A stretch of 64,000 nt of DNA from assembly GCA_051362555.1 (NCBI GenBank), contig CM120645.1:24580934-24644933 (forward strand), in the 5' to 3' direction. Made by a program: the position numbers and the translations under genes. Under the pieces are notes generated by a model that saw nothing but the letters and a program-made list of their open reading frames with translations, had not been told where the DNA came from and made no database searches. Positions within the stretch are counted from its first letter, which is position 1. Each line of letters opens with the position of its first letter. Shown here in pieces: positions 3,001-18,400 of the stretch. The stretch comes from Lingula anatina. Its lineage: Eukaryota; Animalia; Brachiopoda.

Positions 3001-4489
3001 ATAGTAAATCAGGCACAGATGGTGTGTCAGGAGCACTCTGTCCTCTCAACACTCTCTCTGTTTAGATATACTCTTATTGATATATAACTGCAAAGCTTGA
3101 CACTGCTCTGTGAGCTCCTTTACTTGATCTGTTACATCCACTCAATATTTGGATGTAGATTTAAAAAAAAAACAGTTTTCTCTGACATGGCGTACTTTTG
3201 ATCAAATCAGACGAGATGGGAATGATTTGGACATTTGTTGCCACGGGACTGTACTGTGAGATCTTGGTAGCAGTTATTTTGATGTTGCCATGGATACCGT
3301 GTGAAAGGTGAGCCTTTGGTCCCCTGACAGTTCGTCAGATTCAGTTTATAAAAAGCTACTTGAAGTATACTAGTTGTGTGTAGACTGGTTATATTATTCA
3401 TATGTAGGTGGTAACTTTTGTAAAGAATTATTTTACAGATATTTTATTTGTTTGTGTTTGACCTAACAAAGCTCATCGCTGATATAAAAATAAATTTTAC
3501 ACCCACCCCCCACTCCTCTTCCCTGCCCCCCCCACCCTCCCACCCCACAACCCCCCCCCCCCATCTCCTGTACACCCACCCCACTACCCCCTGTGCCTGT
3601 TAGTTGGTAGCATATAACTGATCTCTGTTCTTTATATTTATGTATGGATTGTCCCTGTAACATAAATGAACTTTTTCTAGATCAGTCTTAACCCTGTGCC
3701 CAGGGTGTAGACAGGGTAAAGCACTCACCACCTGCCTGACTGTGTTTTCTATGGGAAATAATGGTGTGTTCTCTCTCTGTATGGAGTGGGCTGTAACCCA
3801 GGGCTCACTGGGCAGATGGTCAATTAATCCATCATCAGCATGCACTTGTGACAATTGGATTTATTTCAATAGTTGAAGTATTTACAGTATTCAGATTGTG
3901 CAGTTGGAGTACAATGATGCCTTGATTAAAGACATAGTATCTGTGATCAGCCTCCACATTGTGTGGCATATTGACCTCACATTAAAGAAAGTTCTGAATC
4001 AAGTCCATTGTAAAGTTAAGGCATACAATGAAAAGATAACATCTTGAAATGTTCAATTTGACTATTTTTATTAATGGAAAGGAGAGAAAGATATATATAT
4101 TGTAGTACAGGTGCTAGTGTTCTATTTTCTATAGTACCTGTACTACAATCAGTGACAAACATGCGCACGTCTTCCAGTGAGAAGTTGGTCTGAGTATGAT
4201 GTGATAACTGAGATGTATTGTGAGATATGGAGACTTAGGGTGTGGTATAAAGTGACTGTAGCAGGTGCTTCTGTTCAGTAAATCCAGACATCTAATAATT
4301 GCTAAGGCCACATTCACAATCTGTTGATTAGCAGACTAACAGATCTGCAGATCAACTTTGCTTGTGAATGTGGCTTTCATTGTTTTGTTTACAGTATAAA
4401 AGATGCAATTAAAATAGAAAATTTTACCTCACATTTTTCCTCTTTAATTCAATTTAAGTTTATTATAAATGTTGATGATGTCATTCCAG

Positions 4490-7400
4490 ATGGCAGAAAC
4501 TGTTCAAGTCTCGGTTCTTGATGATCATCACGTCCTATGCCAACTATTATTTCACAGTGTTCATTGTGATCCTCATGGTTGTGTTTGGAGGTGAGTGTGA
4601 CGAAGGGTGAGGCTCACCACAGGAGCACTGTGGGCTAAAAAGACATCAGTCTTTTTGGAATTATCTGTGAAAAGTGAACAATTTTTTTAGCTGAGTTACT
4701 GATGTGGAATTGCTCTCTTTCTCTTTCTTTTCAGTACAGAATTTAATCAATTTAAACAAGTAAACAGTTTTTCCTATAAAAAAATAAAAAGTGCTCAAGT
4801 ATCATGCATTTTCACTATATAAAGTGAGTAGTTGCTGACCCTATCCTGTGCTGACCCTATCCTGTGCTGACCCTATCCTGTGCTGGCCCTATCCTGTGCT
4901 GACCCTATCCTGTGCTGACCCTATCCTGTGCTGACCCTATCCTGTGCTGACCCTATCCTGTGCTGACCCTATCCTGTGCTGACCCTATCCTGTGCTGACC
5001 CTATCCTGTGCTGACCCTATCCTGTGCTGACCCTATCCTGTGCTGGCCCTATCCTGTGCTGGCCCTATCCTGTGCTGGCCCTATCCTGTGCTGACCCTAT
5101 CCTGTGCTGACCCTATCCTGTGCTGACCCTATCCTGTGCTGACCCTATCCTGTGCTGGCCCTATCCTGTGCTGACCCTATCCTGTGCTGGCCCTATCCTG
5201 TGCTGACCCTATCCTGTGCTGACCCTATCCTGTGCTGACCCTATCCTGTGCTGGCCCTATCCTGTGCTGACCCTATCCTGTGCTGACCCTATCCTGTGCT
5301 GACCCTATCCTGTGCTGGCCTGATCCTGGCCCCAGTCTTCAGTGTGCTTTATTTCTAGATGCTATACGAGAGGTGTATAAATACTCTGGAGAGGAGAAGA
5401 TGCTGGACCCCAAGACCACGCACCACGACACTCTGGAGCACATCCAGCTGCGTCTGTTCCGCTCCCAGCGCAATCTGTACATTGCAGGCTTTGCCTTGTT
5501 CTTGTGGCTGTAAGTTGATATCTCCAGGTCATGCTGTCCACGTCTCTTACTCTCTATGGACATGTTTAAAGTCAAGTCCACCAGGACTGTACCTCTGCAT
5601 ATGGAGAACAATAACTGGCTAATTTTATTTGCTTTTTTTGAGTTTTAGAGGGGTTGGGGGTAATTGATAATGAAGAGTATTGGGAAGTGTGGAATTTTTT
5701 ATCCAAATCTATTTAATTACTGATCTTTAATTGACAAAAATCCAAAAAATAATTCAAAATTTATTTGTAAAAATGAGCCCCTTATTTGTTACTGGTGGCA
5801 CATACTTTGAACTTCATCCAGGGAGAGGGAGAGACCTCTTGGACAGCATACTCACATATATCCAGTGATGTTCTAGTATAAGACTGTAATTTAAAACTTG
5901 CAGATTCCATACGTGAAGTGTACAAGTACAACATCTCTAAAGAATCATTGGACATTAAAACCTCTCAGGCTGCCACGCTGGAGCATGTTCATATGAGACT
6001 CTTCAGAGCTCAGAGGAATTTCTACATTGCTGGGATGTCCCTGTTTTTATTGGTGTAAGTAGGGCCAGGCACTACTGTTTACGCTGCTTTGTGTGAATCA
6101 CTACACCTTGTTTTTTTCTCTCATAGCTCCCACAGTGACTGTTGTATTTTCTTTGGGATATTTTGAAGTGGATGATGACCATTTCGGCATGTTACATCAT
6201 GGTTTGTGCTGAGAAGAAGGGGTGGAGGAGCTTGTGATTTACTCTGCCTGTATTCCTCTGTATGCTCCTCTGACTCCTATTATCCGCGCGCCCCCCCCCC
6301 CCCCCCCCCCCCCCAAATATATATATCTAACGACCTTTAGCCCCAGATATAGGAGATATGGCTAAAAGAGACCGTAAAACAAGCCTTGAAATATACTTCA
6401 GTTATCTTTGGGATGTTAACAGAAAGCCCTTATATGCTTTGTCGTCTGGCAACTGTGCATCACATATAATATAACAGCCTGATCTTAAAATACACAAGAA
6501 GGTGCATGCCAGCTGTAGCTTGGATAGCTGTCAGTGCCTGTAGTTTCACAGTCATGATTAGATATCAGCAAGTCTTTTCCAAATGTATCACTCTAGTGTT
6601 TGAGTAGATGGCATATTAGCAGTGGTGTGCCTTGTAACCAAACTAACTTCTAGCTTAGATTGCCACACAGATTGGGCCAGACCCCCATCCTCTGTCTATA
6701 GAGTAAGGGAGCATTCCCATTGACACATCAGACTAGTCAAATTCTGCGGAGGCTCTCGCTTAATGCAATTGGCTTAACTGAATGACACACCCTCTAGAGC
6801 AGGGAGTGGTCTTGGGGACCAAGTTAATTACCACCTAGCTGTTCGAGGAGGTGTGTCAGACAATTAAGCTGACTCTGCTGACACTAAGAGAGAATCCATG
6901 TTAGAGTTGGACAAACCTAACTAGTTTGACGTGTCTGTGGGAATAGATTCTTACTTATGCCTGGCTGTACAGTTAAGTATGGGATATTTTTACAGACCCT
7001 GAAGAGGGTAAGAGGAGGGGGGCTGCTTAGTGACTTAGTGACCCTTTCCAGGTTGTAAAGTCAGGCAAAATTGTTTTCTTTTGCTTGTGATTTGTTTGCA
7101 CCCAGGTTTTGCGGGTTGATTTATTTGTTTAGTTTTGTCTCATATGTTTCCTGCACCAGCCTGGGGCTCTTGGGAGGTAATGAAATGTGAGGATTTATTT
7201 TATAGTAAAGAGATCATAGCCATAGATGCATGCATAACATAATTGATTAGATGTACTGATATTAAGTTGCGTCTCTGGATAAATAACTGTTTAGTTCATC
7301 CTTGCCATTATTGTGTTAATGCCTTTTAAGATGTATTTATTTTAATATAATTTTATTTGTGTTTTATAAGCATTCATTTCATTATTCTTGTTTGTAAATC

Positions 7401-9337
7401 AGAAGATGCATAAAATATACTGACAGTCAATGAAAATGCATCATTTATTTATCAAATAATATTTTAAGTTCCTTTTGCACATTTAGAAAATAAGTTTTCC
7501 TTTGAAATATGAAATGGTGGTCAGCCCACTCGCTTATGACCAAACAAGTGCATTTCTACTCGTTTATATGGTTGGAATCGATTCTCGGTAAAAAAGTACA
7601 AGAAAGTTTTCTGATGCGTTTTCATTGACTGTCTGTATATTTGTGTTTTGTAAGCATTCATTTCATTATTTGTGTTTGTAAATGAGAAGATGCATAATCA
7701 TTATTTTATATTATTTAGGAGAGCAGAAAATGAAAAATGACTGAGTGTTCTGAGATAATAATGAAAACATTTAAGTTCTGATCATAGAAAAGTTTGCTCC
7801 AATAGCTTAAAGTCTCTGTCTTTTAGGACAGAAGCACTATTGATATCATATCTCCATTCCAGTATAGCTCAGTGACCAGAAGTTTGATGTTTCTAGCTGT
7901 CACGGCTCAGAGATGTGGTCTTGACGCAGGCAGAGAACTATTTCCACTGATAAAGAATACTATTACTGTTCTTGTTTTGTTCTAGAGTGTTGAAGAGATT
8001 GGTAGTTCTGATATCTGCGTCTGCTACCCTCACTGCTCAGAGAGATGTGGCCTTGAAGCAGGCAGAGAACTATTTCCACTGATAAAGAATACTATTACTG
8101 TTCTTGTTTTGTTCTAGAGTGTTGAAGAGATTGGTAGTTCTGATATCTGCGGCTGCTACCCTCACTGCTCAGAGAGATGTGGCCTTGAAGCAGGCAGAGA
8201 ACTATTTCCACTGATAAAGAATACTATTACTGTTCTTGTTTTGTTCTAGAGTGTTGAAGAGATTGGTAGTTCTGATATCTGCGGCTGCTACCCTCACTGC
8301 TCAGAGAGATGTGGCCTTGAAGCAGGCAGAGAACACCTCTGCTCATGCCAAGAAACTGATGGAAGAGGCAGATACTAAGAAGGCCAATAAAGACAATGAG
8401 GTACTCATGGGAGAAGTGGGATGTTGACTTAACAAACAGATTCGTTTTGACAAAATTGATTTATGAAGAGTAATTAGGGGCTGCTTAATTACATGTGTAG
8501 ATTTTTAAATCCTTGAAATTTTCACATTAATCTTACTTCTTAATAAGTGATTTCTGACCTAAGAGACAAATTGAAGTTTGTTTATTGCAAGGCTATAAGA
8601 TCTTGATCCTACCCTAAAAAAAGTCATGTTATTCCACTCCAGGAGAAGGATGAAGAGAGAAAGAGGACCTCCAGTGCCAGTGACAAGCTAGAGGAGGAAC
8701 TTAAGAGAGTGAAGGAAGATCTGGAGAAGTCTGAGTCAGGTAAGAAGATCTGGAGAAGTCTTAGTCAACTGAGCATCAATACTTCTAGATACAAGATGTA
8801 AAAGGCATTCAGAAACAGGATTAGAGTTTGCACTAAGGATTAGAGTTTTTTGGGGTCCAGAAAAAATGATTTGTCAAGATGTTTCATGTCTCAATCTTTG
8901 AATTAGTGACTTTGACTTAAATAAATTGTGTGATGTGATTTTGTCCATTCCAGAACTGGAGCAATCTAAAAGGGATTTGCAGACGTTAAAGAAGCAAGCG
9001 TCTGCCACCAACAATGAGTATGATCGTCTGCTCAAAGAGCATGCTGAACTCCAGGTACAACTGAATTTAGGACAGATAATATAATCTTTTTTTTTAAGAG
9101 AGGGGTCAGAAATTTAAGCAAGTCAGCCTTCCTCTTTCATGCAGTTTTGTTCATGTGTCTATTGAATATGTTTTATGAGAAGAAAACTAATGATATATAT
9201 AATTGTGGAACTTAATCAATAGTTCTGCAGAGGAATTTGTTTATGTCGAGTTGCTTCTATCCCAGAACATAGAAATGTGTTGTTGTTTATTTCAGGCTAA
9301 GTTAGAGTCAGGAGGTGAAGACAAGAAGGACCTGTAA
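4490..9337 (+). CDS. BCAP31: B-cell receptor-associated protein 31/29 (BAP31/BAP29 family ER membrane protein), 5'-partial spliced CDS
   Basis: AG/GT-bounded, phase-compatible exons: 4490-4590 (WQKLFKSRFLMIITSYANYYFTVFIVILMVVFG), 5359-5509 or 5904-6054 (DAIREVYKY...LFRSQRNLYIAGFALFLWL), 8250-8400 (VLKRLVVLISAAATLTAQRDVALKQAENTSAHAKKLMEE...), 8643-8739, 8954-9054 (...LKKQASATNNEYDRLLKEHAELQ) and 9296-9337 (AKLESGGEDKKDL*). Family motifs FRxQRNxYIAG and EYDRL are present, with a C-terminal KKXX ER-retrieval signal. No start exon was found in the window. BCAP31 vs BCAP29 orthology cannot be resolved. Confidence 0.95.
4833..5320. repeat. 16-bp minisatellite (TGCTGACCCTATCCTG)n, about 30 copies
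   Basis: Read directly; GAC/GGC variant units; ends about 40 nt before the exon acceptor at 5358. Confidence 0.97.
5359..5509 (+). CDS. BCAP31: BAP31 exon variant A (151 nt)
   Basis: tttctag|AT GCT ATA CGA ... TGG CT|gtaagt; translates as DAIREVYKYSGEEKMLDPKTTHHDTLEHIQLRLFRSQRNLYIAGFALFLWL. Confidence 0.92.
5904..6054 (+). CDS. BCAP31: BAP31 exon variant B (151 nt), paralogous to 5359-5509, putative mutually exclusive exon
   Basis: cttgcag|AT TCC ATA CGT ... TTG GT|gtaagt; translates as DSIREVYKYNISKESLDIKTSQAATLEHVHMRLFRAQRNFYIAGMSLFLLV. Same length and phases as variant A, no stops, 30/51 aa identical by manual count. Confidence 0.88.
6707..6950. mobile_element. Degenerate related MITE in BAP31 intron
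   Basis: TAA|GGGAGCATTCCCATTGACACATCAGACTAGT ... ACTAGTTTGACGTGTCTGTGGGAAT; internal AGTTAATTACC core shared with the element at 30729. Confidence 0.62.
7420..7635. mobile_element. Tc1/mariner-like MITE
   Basis: TA|CTGACAGTCAATGAAAATGCATCA ... TGATGCGTTTTCATTGACTGTCTG|TA. Confidence 0.7.
7905..8334 (+). repeat. 132-bp tandem triplication spanning a BAP31 intron/exon junction
   Basis: The acceptor ttgttctag|AGTGTTGAAG recurs at 7985, 8117 and 8249, with a degenerate partial copy at 7905-7940. Confidence 0.95.
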
Positions 9338-15430: not shown

Positions 15431-18400
15431 ATGAGTTTGGAAGTAATTGTTCCGTCTGGGTTGACAGACTTGCTTACGCCGTTCGTAGTGGCTGTCCTGC
15501 GAGATGGACCGGACGATTTGGTGGATTTTGCTGCAAATTACTTCAATGAACTCCGAGAAAAGAGGCAGGGAACGCTACCAGGAATGGGAAGGGGAGTTCG
15601 TTTTGTCCCTGGTTCCGACGATGAAGCCATGCAAACGGACTCTGACGATGAACCAATGCCAGGTGAGAGTGAACGCAAATCTGTTGTCAGCACTCATTTG
15701 TTGTACAAGTGATATAAACCGCAATAAGTCGTTAGGAACACCAGTAATTATATCGCTGTACAAAGGTAATTGGTTCGAAGTTTTGTTGAAAGGTGTATAA
15801 GTCTCCAATTTGACATTTTGCCCCAGGTTACATCGCCCAGCCAACCAAAGGCTGATAACTTACTTGATAAAGAAAAAAATCCCTTCTCTCAGTGAAAACC
15901 AGATTTCAGCACAGGTGGAGGAGAACATGTGGTTCAGTACTTTGTGTAAATATTGTGCCAGTCTTGTAACATCCCACAGAATTTTCTCCTCAAATAATTG
16001 CAAACAGCTCTAGGGTAAACAAGACAGCATCTTCAAATAATTGATGTAATAATGTACTCCCCCATGAATTACTTCTCGCTTTGAACAGTTATAGACTAAC
16101 GAATACTGAATACAATAACACAATATGTGCTTGTTTTTTTCAAAAAAGATTAAGAATATAAGCATGTCATTATAAAAAGGGATGCATAGTGTAATTACTT
16201 TATTCCATCTTCTATTTATAAATAAAAAATAACATAAAGCCTGTCATATAGAAAAGAAAGACCTCATAAACCCTTGAAAGCTCATGATTTCGATTAGCAT
16301 TTCTTTCATTTTGTTTGGATTATATGAAATGCCAGTTCTCTCAATCTTTTAATCTGTCAGTTTTCAGATGTTGATGTTTCATCTTGATCAGCTCAGTTGG
16401 AAGGTCTTGTTCAGTATCAAAATAAAAGAATTGGCATAAAGTTGGTCGAGAAAAGATTAATCGGTATAGAAATGGGATCTTGATATTCTTAAACTGCATC
16501 TTCTAGTTATTGATCATGTTCTAATGGGATTGTTTTCATTTTACTGATTAAGTTGGGAATTTCATGTTTCTAGATTAGCTGTATACAGTTGTATTGAACA
16601 GATGGGCATCCTTGATTGGATTTGAATTGTTATTATCCATGCTATGGGAAGAAGTTCACTTCATACCATTGGATGCAGGAGTCATTTAAACTTGGTGTTT
16701 TGGTAGTATACTGATAGCTGGAATTCATAGTATTTCTAATAATTGTGTCTCTAGTACAGGACGTAAGGAATTCATGTGTGAAAAGAGCCTAGGATTTTGG
16801 CTGTAGGTAATAGAACATCAAATATTGAACAGACCAAATTGAAGATTGGCCTGCTGCTGGTAGAGAATAGATTTTTCTTAAGACACAAGTTAGTTCCTTG
16901 CTTTGTGCTTAGCTATAAAGTTAGCTTAACGTGGACATGACGGAGGTTTGTGATGCGGCAGATGGGTGTGTCAAGCAGCGAGAGAGACGGGGGGCTGTCG
17001 ATTCCGCAGTAGGTAAGATGCTGTACTCTGGACAGAGTCAAATGTCAGCTTTATACATTTCTAAAGCATGGTTGTAAGTACTCTAAATATGAAATATTGA
17101 CTTCTGCAGGCTACCCATGTTCGAATTATATTCCTGATCATTTGTCACAGTATGTTTATCTCAGAAACTGGCATACTGTTTAATTGTTTTTCCTGGTGCC
17201 ATAGCAATGCAGAAAATATACTTTGGGAAATAATTTGAATCACATAGGCAACATTATATGCCTTTCTTTCATGTTTTTTAATTGAGATATACAGACTCGC
17301 ATTTCTATGCTGCCTAAGGCATTAGGTGTCATTAGATTGTATGCCAGCATTTACAACTGTTTAAGGGATATTCCGTCCATTAACACCTGTGATAGTTTCC
17401 CCAGATGTAGACATTTGATCTTGATTACATTTGAGACGTAGGTTTAAAAGAATTGGATGATTTTAGTTGCTATTTTGTTACTATAGGCTAATTATAGGTT
17501 CACCCAAGAGGACACGGGGTGGTATATTAAGGTTAAGTAGCCATAGTGTTCAGATCAATCAACCGTTTCCTGCAGTTTCACTGTCAATAGTTCATCATTT
17601 TCCACCATTTTCATCTTGTCAGTAGAAATTTGTACAGCGTTTAGAAAGATCAATCTTCTCCTTCAATACTCTCTGCTGTGTTGTTTACATATCTGTCTGT
17701 CTTGCCGTATAAATAAACCTGTACTGGTGAGATAAAGCCAATGGTTTGTTTTATAATCAGAGATCACCTGTACATTTTACATCCGTCTAAGTGCAGTTGG
17801 TGTGCCTGGTAGAAATGGATTTTTAAATAAAGCAAGTTCTGACAGCTAAATCCTAACCACCAGAGGTTTAATTAAAGCACATAAAAAGGGACCACTCTTT
17901 TGGACTTACAACAGTACGAGTTTTATGGTTGTGTTCTCGAGATATAAAAATAACACAGCCTATTTCCTACAGGTTTTTGCTTTATTTCTACTCTCTGTAA
18001 AATTCTGTAATATGTCAGCAAAATGTCTATAATCCATTATTTTACAGTTGAAATGTGAATGTGTTGTCTTAACTGAAATCATATATGGTTCCTTAACATT
18101 TTATCTTAGAGTGGTTTCAAATTTAAACAAAACATGTAGTGAAGTTTAAATCCTTTTAGCATTGTAAGATACTAAAGGCATTGAATGATTGTTAATGAAT
18201 TACCAAAAAAAAATGGTTTTTTGAAACCTTAAACTCATCATACTAGCAAATGTATGATTTGTATGATGGACCCAGGATTTAATAATAAATATTGCTGCCC
18301 CAGACCTTTAATTTATATTCTGAAAAATGAAAATGTTGGTGTTTAGTGAGGTGTGAGGTGATGATTATGGCATGTATGTATGCTATACAAAACAACTTTA

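Follow-up and report, generated by a model that had tools for sequence, protein, structure and literature searches.

Two tandem copies of one BAP31 exon are used either-or in the brachiopod Lingula anatina, and the same segment is swapped in isoform models of other animals

BAP31 takes part in the sorting of membrane proteins within the endoplasmic reticulum (ER). In Lingula anatina a gene of this family carries two neighbouring, similar exons for one position of its mRNA, raising the question of whether one replaces the other in the transcript, how old the pair is and what the exchange could mean for the protein. We analysed 64,000 nucleotides of the forward strand (GCA_051362555.1, contig CM120645.1, positions 24,580,934 to 24,644,933; hereafter the window), whose plus strand holds a BAP31/BAP29-family gene with seven coding positions in the mRNA, the third filled by exon A or exon B. 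Proteins P0149 and P0231 match Pfam Bap31 (E 1e-40) and Bap31_Bap29_C (E 6e-11), both above the cut-off. Hydropathy and the C-terminus reveal the traits of the BAP31/BAP29 (Yet) family, namely three hydrophobic segments, a long cytosolic helix and a C-terminal KKXX, and an Atlas search confirmed the family assignment. The parts of the gene are as follows.

3216..3307, plus strand: alternative first coding exon (TM1) of the RefSeq isoform X3 type (Pfam Bap31 positions 1-27)
4161..4184, plus strand: short alternative start, giving the start codon and first 8 codons of the TM1-less RefSeq model XP_013411831.2 (P0232; tblastn 8/8)
4490..4590, plus strand: coding exon 2, for the cytosolic loop and TM2 (loose read ends before A and B equal its 3' end)
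5359..5509, plus strand: exon 3A, the major form, encoding the lumenal loop and most of TM3, residues 65-115 (Pfam, RNA)
5510..5903, plus strand: intron between A and B, 394 nt, GT-AG, with a pyrimidine-poor acceptor before B (from the pyrimidine share)
5904..6054, plus strand: exon 3B, the minor form, with the N74 sequon and Met109 and without Trp114 (Pfam, RNA)
8250..8400, plus strand: coding exon 4, completing TM3 and beginning the cytosolic helix (loose read ends behind A and B equal its first 30 nt)
8643..8739, plus strand: coding exon 5, identical to RefSeq residues 166-197
8954..9054, plus strand: coding exon 6, coiled coil (Pfam Bap31_Bap29_C, E 1.8e-11)
9296..9337, plus strand: last coding exon, KKXX signal followed by the stop (translation)

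Both the A and the B isoform are already present in RefSeq as automatic predictions. XP_013411830.1 (X3) is identical to the window's A isoform at 243 of 244 residues, while X1 (XP_013411827.1) and X2 (XP_013411829.1) both use another first exon and differ from each other by exactly the A/B swap seen in the window; A is thereby paired with either first exon among the RefSeq Lingula models. The canonical TM1 exon of X1 and X2 is absent from the window, where tblastn of P0230 finds only the paralogous exon at 3216-3307, and the differences between P0149 and P0230 are confined to residues 2-31. A published description of Lingula X1 (PMC5430146) gives its intron lengths, the first being 10,030 bp, and does not mention alternative exons; this length fits a first exon upstream of window base 1. 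The first-exon alternatives of X1 and X3 are themselves homologous TM1 exons (14-15 of 31 residues alike), and isoform records of Mytilus (P0029/P0036 and P0033/P0040) contain alternative homologous TM1 segments as well. These TM1 alternatives form a second duplicated module, beside the TM1-less start, and in combination with exon 3 could give four or more membrane-domain variants. A literature search covering few subscription journals and excluding supplements returned no published account of a BAP31 exon-3 swap. The new part is the recurrence at one exon in three lineages, the Lingula isoforms themselves being already annotated.

A and B are each 151 nt long with AG and GT ends, are entered in phase 1 and left in phase 2, and agree at 30 of 51 residues and 90 of 151 bases; the coordinates, length, phases, splice ends and residue identity reported in an earlier note on this DNA were all exact on recheck. 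Either exon alone matches Pfam Bap31 positions 65-115 (A, E 1.6e-14; B, E 1.9e-13), a search with exon B alone yielded one relative among 3 candidates, and tblastn detected no third exon-3 copy in the window (next match E 0.49). Transcripts containing only A or only B are predicted to encode a 244-residue BAP31 ending in KKXX. With A and B together translation stops at residue 119, and with neither it stops at residue 67, as expected from the earlier note's claim that both double inclusion and double skipping shift the frame. Synonymous sites are saturated between the two copies (pS 0.89) against a dN of 0.34, and synonymous changes make up 6 of the 8 read variants listed for A (p 0.003) and 3 of the 4 for B (p 0.03), albeit in short and incomplete lists; decay of B is therefore unlikely. 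A and B are old tandem copies, and purifying selection looks to be acting on both. An assembly artefact or haplotype duplicate is ruled out by the 60% DNA identity, the unrelated flanks, the reads on both exons and the models from a second assembly.

Raw RNA reads from eight runs under the same species label, drawn from three studies (P5, P6 and P7), support either-or inclusion of A and B in Lingula BAP31 mRNA. Both exons have read depth in 8 of 8 runs, on the expected strand in all five stranded runs, so neither is the never-included exon that the earlier note had allowed for. The joins it named as a check on mutually exclusive use (4590 to 5359, 5509 to 8250, 4590 to 5904 and 6054 to 8250) were recovered as loose read ends: the consensus before A and before B is the end of exon 2, and that behind A and behind B is the start of exon 4, although the three copies of the exon-4 acceptor described below are not distinguishable in this way. 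Totalled over the 8 runs, 341 reads join exon 2 to A and 269 join A to exon 4, with these joins present in all 8, while at least 13 reads join exon 2 to B (X15, X16) and at least 16 join B to exon 4 (X15, X16, X18). X15 and X16 contain all four. No A-to-B junction is among those listed for the 8 runs, where junctions were reported only at three or more reads per run; this absence is weak by itself, since with that threshold only about 1-3 reads per run would be expected even under independent inclusion. More telling are the reads entering B from exon 2 in X15 and X16 (4 and 9), which equal the depth at the start of B. In these runs, splicing thus passes over A to get to B.

B is the minor form, with a share by depth of 2-39%: 1.8 and 13.4% in the P5 runs, 19.7, 39.2 and 27.6% in P6, where it is highest, and 3.6, 5.1 and 4.8% in P7. 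X16 and X18 differ by Fisher's test (p 4e-9, or 5e-5 with counts halved). The runs are without tissue labels, and the variation could be an effect of tissue, stage, individual or library. Separately, the P7 runs contain nearly fixed differences in exon A (5413-5414 and 5453), one of which changes residue 83, and these are absent or rarer in the other studies; we read them as the mark of a separate population, or of a cryptic species, that carries the same species name.

How might the choice be made? The pyrimidine share is 0.45 before B, the lowest of the gene's 7 acceptors, and 0.75 before A. With the most pyrimidine-poor acceptor in the gene preceding B, exon A would win by default, and B would be raised in some samples, most likely by regulated competition between splice sites. 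Branch-like words lie 5-220 nt from the A donor and none lies near B, and no long complementary arms linking the introns around A and B were found. Neither the 394-nt GT-AG intron nor the absence of long arms hints at control by steric clash, a U12/U2 mix or docking-selector pairing, which leaves regulated competition together with decay: transcripts with both exons or neither, which carry early stops, would be removed by nonsense-mediated decay.

The weak acceptor before B also suits the alternative that B is a tolerated, frame-neutral leftover, included as splicing noise and with no job of its own. B indeed amounts to only 2-5% in 4 of 8 runs, and many tandem exon duplications are reported to be nearly neutral (PMC3342872). 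However, the frame and core motif of B are intact despite saturated synonymous sites, with 3 of its 4 listed variants synonymous, B reaches 20-39% inclusion in three runs, and parallel pairs are retained across three Branchiostoma species and three heterobranch genera, so we consider a jobless leftover quite improbable. The intact frame and motif, the synonymous variants, the inclusion in those three runs and the parallel pairs also rule out B as a pseudoexon.

Several repeats occupy the introns around the pair. A 132-bp array at 7909-8334 (3.2 copies, 98% alike) triplicates the exon-4 acceptor and the first 84 nt behind it (7986, 8118 and 8250); both upstream copies run into stops, so the use of either would remove the cytosolic tail. 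In the RefSeq model the intron after A is 2478 bp long and there is an additional one of 123 bp (PMC5430146); the window measures 2476 bp from A to the first acceptor copy, which suggests that at least two copies exist in that assembly too. A 16-bp minisatellite of 31 copies (4833-5328) ends 30 nt before the A acceptor. The intron before A is 768 bp in the window and 354 bp in PMC5430146, and its length thus varies between assemblies or alleles. The intron after B contains two MITE-like elements with terminal inverted arms (6702-6955 and 7413-7642), the latter flanked by two 60-bp direct copies and attracting reads of many other transcripts. A 29-codon open stretch between AG and GT at 16-102, within the long first intron of X1, has no Pfam match. 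On the same strand, 6 kb downstream of the gene, 15434-15664 is the first coding exon of a type II PKA regulatory subunit gene (Pfam RIIa, E 3e-10); human BCAP29 presumably sits close to PRKAR2B on 7q22, and the linkage might then be an old one.

The swapped part, residues 65-115, comprises the TM2-TM3 loop, which is lumenal in the reported topology of human BAP31 (PMC4478030), and the greater part of TM3. As the exon ends at residue 115, the final turns of this helix are supplied by exon 4, and the earlier note's description of a loop plus TM3 needs shortening at that end. Its picture of a diverged loop beside a conserved core is likewise borne out in part: 11 of the 21 A/B differences fall at 74-88 and one at 66, but the other 9 belong to TM3 and the helix that runs up to it. 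The TM3 Trp that is common in the family (179 of 318 segments) is missing from B, whose Met at the TM3 Gly-x position is rare (6 of 318 distinct segments). A model predicted from a 118-sequence alignment (pLDDT 86, pTM 0.55) is a helical hairpin with a helix at 39-79, a loop at 80-86 and a second helix from 87; the single-sequence fold was poor (pTM 0.26). Foldseek against the PDB gave no match at E 0.001, and no solved structure of a BAP31 membrane domain was among the PDB matches found.

An N-I-S sequon at N74 is confined to B, as the earlier note had observed. For TM helices, a sequon spacing of 12-14 residues is needed. N74 is 10-11 residues past the predicted end of TM2 and inside the predicted helix 39-79, making it a weak site, in keeping with the note's doubt about its use so close to the membrane; near an interfacial helix, glycosylation is reported to have needed 11 residues downstream (PMC11837994). 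Sequons occur in 12 of 318 loop segments; of the swapped pairs, only those of Lingula (in B) and Physella (in X2) have one, and it is missing in amphioxus and Aplysia. We therefore do not favour the sequon as the purpose of the swap, and its presence in B is probably incidental.

Isoform records with an exon-3 swap were found for Branchiostoma floridae, B. lanceolatum, B. belcheri, Aplysia californica and Physella acuta, and both copies stand in series in one model each of Elysia crispata and B. lanceolatum. The isoform pairs, known from protein records only, are identical outside the segment (about residues 66-117) and 44-60% alike inside it. These amphioxus and heterobranch pairs involve the same span as Lingula exon 3, in which the isoforms of the three lineages differ at 20-28 residues; they differ from the Lingula pair in their sequences, which group by lineage, and in being known from protein records or gene models. 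No further exon-3 swap turned up in the rest of an alignment of 285 proteins, whose rows cover bivalves, caenogastropods, nemerteans, annelids, echinoderms and arthropods among others. The scan was limited to proteins of 180-280 aa (110 of 393 were left out as outside this range) and to swap targets other than exons 5-7, and because annotations miss minor exons its count is a lower bound. Cluster look-ups for 30 proteins revealed no swap in Lineus, Littorina, Mercenaria, lampreys, Asterias or Argiope, single-member clusters being silent on isoforms elsewhere. Apparent swaps in Mya (P0022/P0057, a deletion), C. virginica (P0025/P0054, in the exon-4 region, with lengths differing by 20 residues) and oysters (P0002/P0005, different species) were dropped, as were those arising from truncated N-termini. 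Isoform X1 of Gigantopelta aegis (P0052) has a long-branched exon-3 segment with a sequon, and is a candidate for a fourth lineage with a swapped exon.

Whether these lineages share one duplication or made several was addressed with three trees built on 50 columns, one with A and B out of register and one under a mixture model. In register, A and B group together (62/92, and 89/81 in the mixture-model tree), though the grouping is never starred, and they share four residues, one of them an extra residue, found in 0 of 54 other rows. With the alignment out of register A joins BAP29 (92/97), the A+B grouping not being rejected (p 0.44). The amphioxus pair is a starred clade (97/98 and 100/98), and the heterobranch copies group with caenogastropod single exons (84-87 support; 85/96 in the mixture-model tree), one heterobranch copy being unresolved in two trees. 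Exon classes spanning three lineages were rejected in 3 of 4 cases (p 0.001, 0.002 and 0.03; the fourth p 0.07) and those spanning two in 0 of 6 (p 0.07-0.18), in tests that require each class to form a clade of its own, a pattern not necessarily expected of an ancient pair that later suffered losses. With modest support, these comparisons favour a separate duplication in each lineage over a single origin as the likelier history, although gene conversion could mimic separate origins.

The competing history is one ancient exon pair, of lophotrochozoan or bilaterian age, that survives in brachiopods, in heterobranch snails and possibly in amphioxus; elsewhere it would have been lost or left unannotated, and gene conversion would have partly homogenised the copies. 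It would sit well with the choice of the same segment in all three lineages and with the ease with which minor exons are overlooked in annotation. Lingula B also has its best identity outside Lingula with Aplysia X2 (58%), the rare TM3 Met is found, apart from Lingula B, only in four duplicated copies of heterobranchs and in a single unnamed protein, and a class of B with the second heterobranch type is not rejected (p 0.18), nor is one with amphioxus X2 added (p 0.07). Yet every pair has lineage-private residues and groups by lineage, the 285 aligned proteins offer no other exon-3 swap, and the four heterobranch Met rows are not independent, the Met being on the other copy type in Physella. 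We regard a common ancient pair as unlikely.

The earlier note likened the exon pair to the vertebrate paralogues BAP29 and BAP31, an analogy that has some footing. In mean shared columns A appears closer to BAP29 (28.5, against 22.6 with BAP31) and B slightly closer to BAP31 (25.0, against 23.5 with BAP29), but several of the shared residues are common across the family. Taken literally, the likeness would make A the orthologue of BAP29 exon 3 and B that of BAP31 exon 3, the pair having later been split by vertebrates between two genes. A's nearest relative is indeed BAP29 (58-60% identity), which it joins in the out-of-register tree; neither A+BAP29 (p 0.43) nor B+BAP31 (p 0.28) is rejected; and all three trees contain a starred set, at odds with the species tree, that unites the exons of Lingula, Bugula and vertebrates. 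However, A groups with B in the in-register trees, amphioxus, which is closer to vertebrates, has its own private pair, the lamprey records are of one type, and what A has in common with BAP29 is either frequent in the family or labile (the Ser of the R-x-Q motif in 53 of 318 segments, besides the widespread TM3 Trp). Orthology of A and B to the vertebrate paralogues thus seems unlikely, and a later division of the ancestral pair between two vertebrate genes we would give very little weight.

A convergent likeness is a tentative idea that we hold to be possible but on balance doubtful: the loop and TM3 may be a specificity switch doubled at least four times in animals, and Lingula A would have converged on BAP29 and Lingula B on BAP31. 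The doublings would then comprise exon duplications in brachiopods, heterobranchs and amphioxus and a gene duplication in jawed vertebrates, a tally subject to the same doubt. If true, a single gene builds a pair of the BAP29/BAP31 or Yet1/Yet3 kind, and a 51-residue swap defines what separates the human paralogues. To our knowledge, the features distinguishing BAP31 from BAP29 are poorly mapped; a 2008 paper reportedly dealt with BAP31/BAP29 chimeras.

As for function, BAP31 is reported to bind a client via its membrane region (PMC2132629), and in yeast Yet1-Yet3 heteromers are described as altering function, the pairing switching the protein between jobs (10.1101/2024.05.09.593285). From these two precedents, the most likely effect of the A/B swap would be to tune what the membrane domain binds, client or partner, for which we see about an even chance. 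Our explanation as a whole, with a probability of roughly 0.7, is that one of two old exons is included in each mRNA, that they likely arose by a separate duplication in the brachiopod line and that they likely differ in client or partner. Isoform pairs in three lineages draw attention to the lumenal loop together with TM3, probably a tuning site of the protein, and such natural pairs are ready-made material for swap experiments.

Vertebrate BAP29/BAP31 and yeast Yet1/Yet3 resemble the Lingula isoforms in being two versions of one trispan ER protein, but in Lingula only 51 residues are swapped, with TM1, TM2, the coiled coil and KKXX in common. Tandemly duplicated exons are reported for 7-17% of metazoan genes and are recurrent in tropomyosin, DSCAM and ion channels (PMC3342872); with this kind of event so common and the isoforms already in RefSeq, the surprise here is limited. 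In those genes, as in BAP31, the same exon has been duplicated in several bilaterian lineages, and the likeness to tropomyosin extends to alternative first exons, found for BAP31 in Lingula and Mytilus. BAP31 differs from all of them in being an ER membrane cargo receptor encoded by a housekeeping gene, with only two copies of the exon. For the evolution of splicing, a housekeeping ER gene thereby joins the short list of recurrent same-exon duplications.
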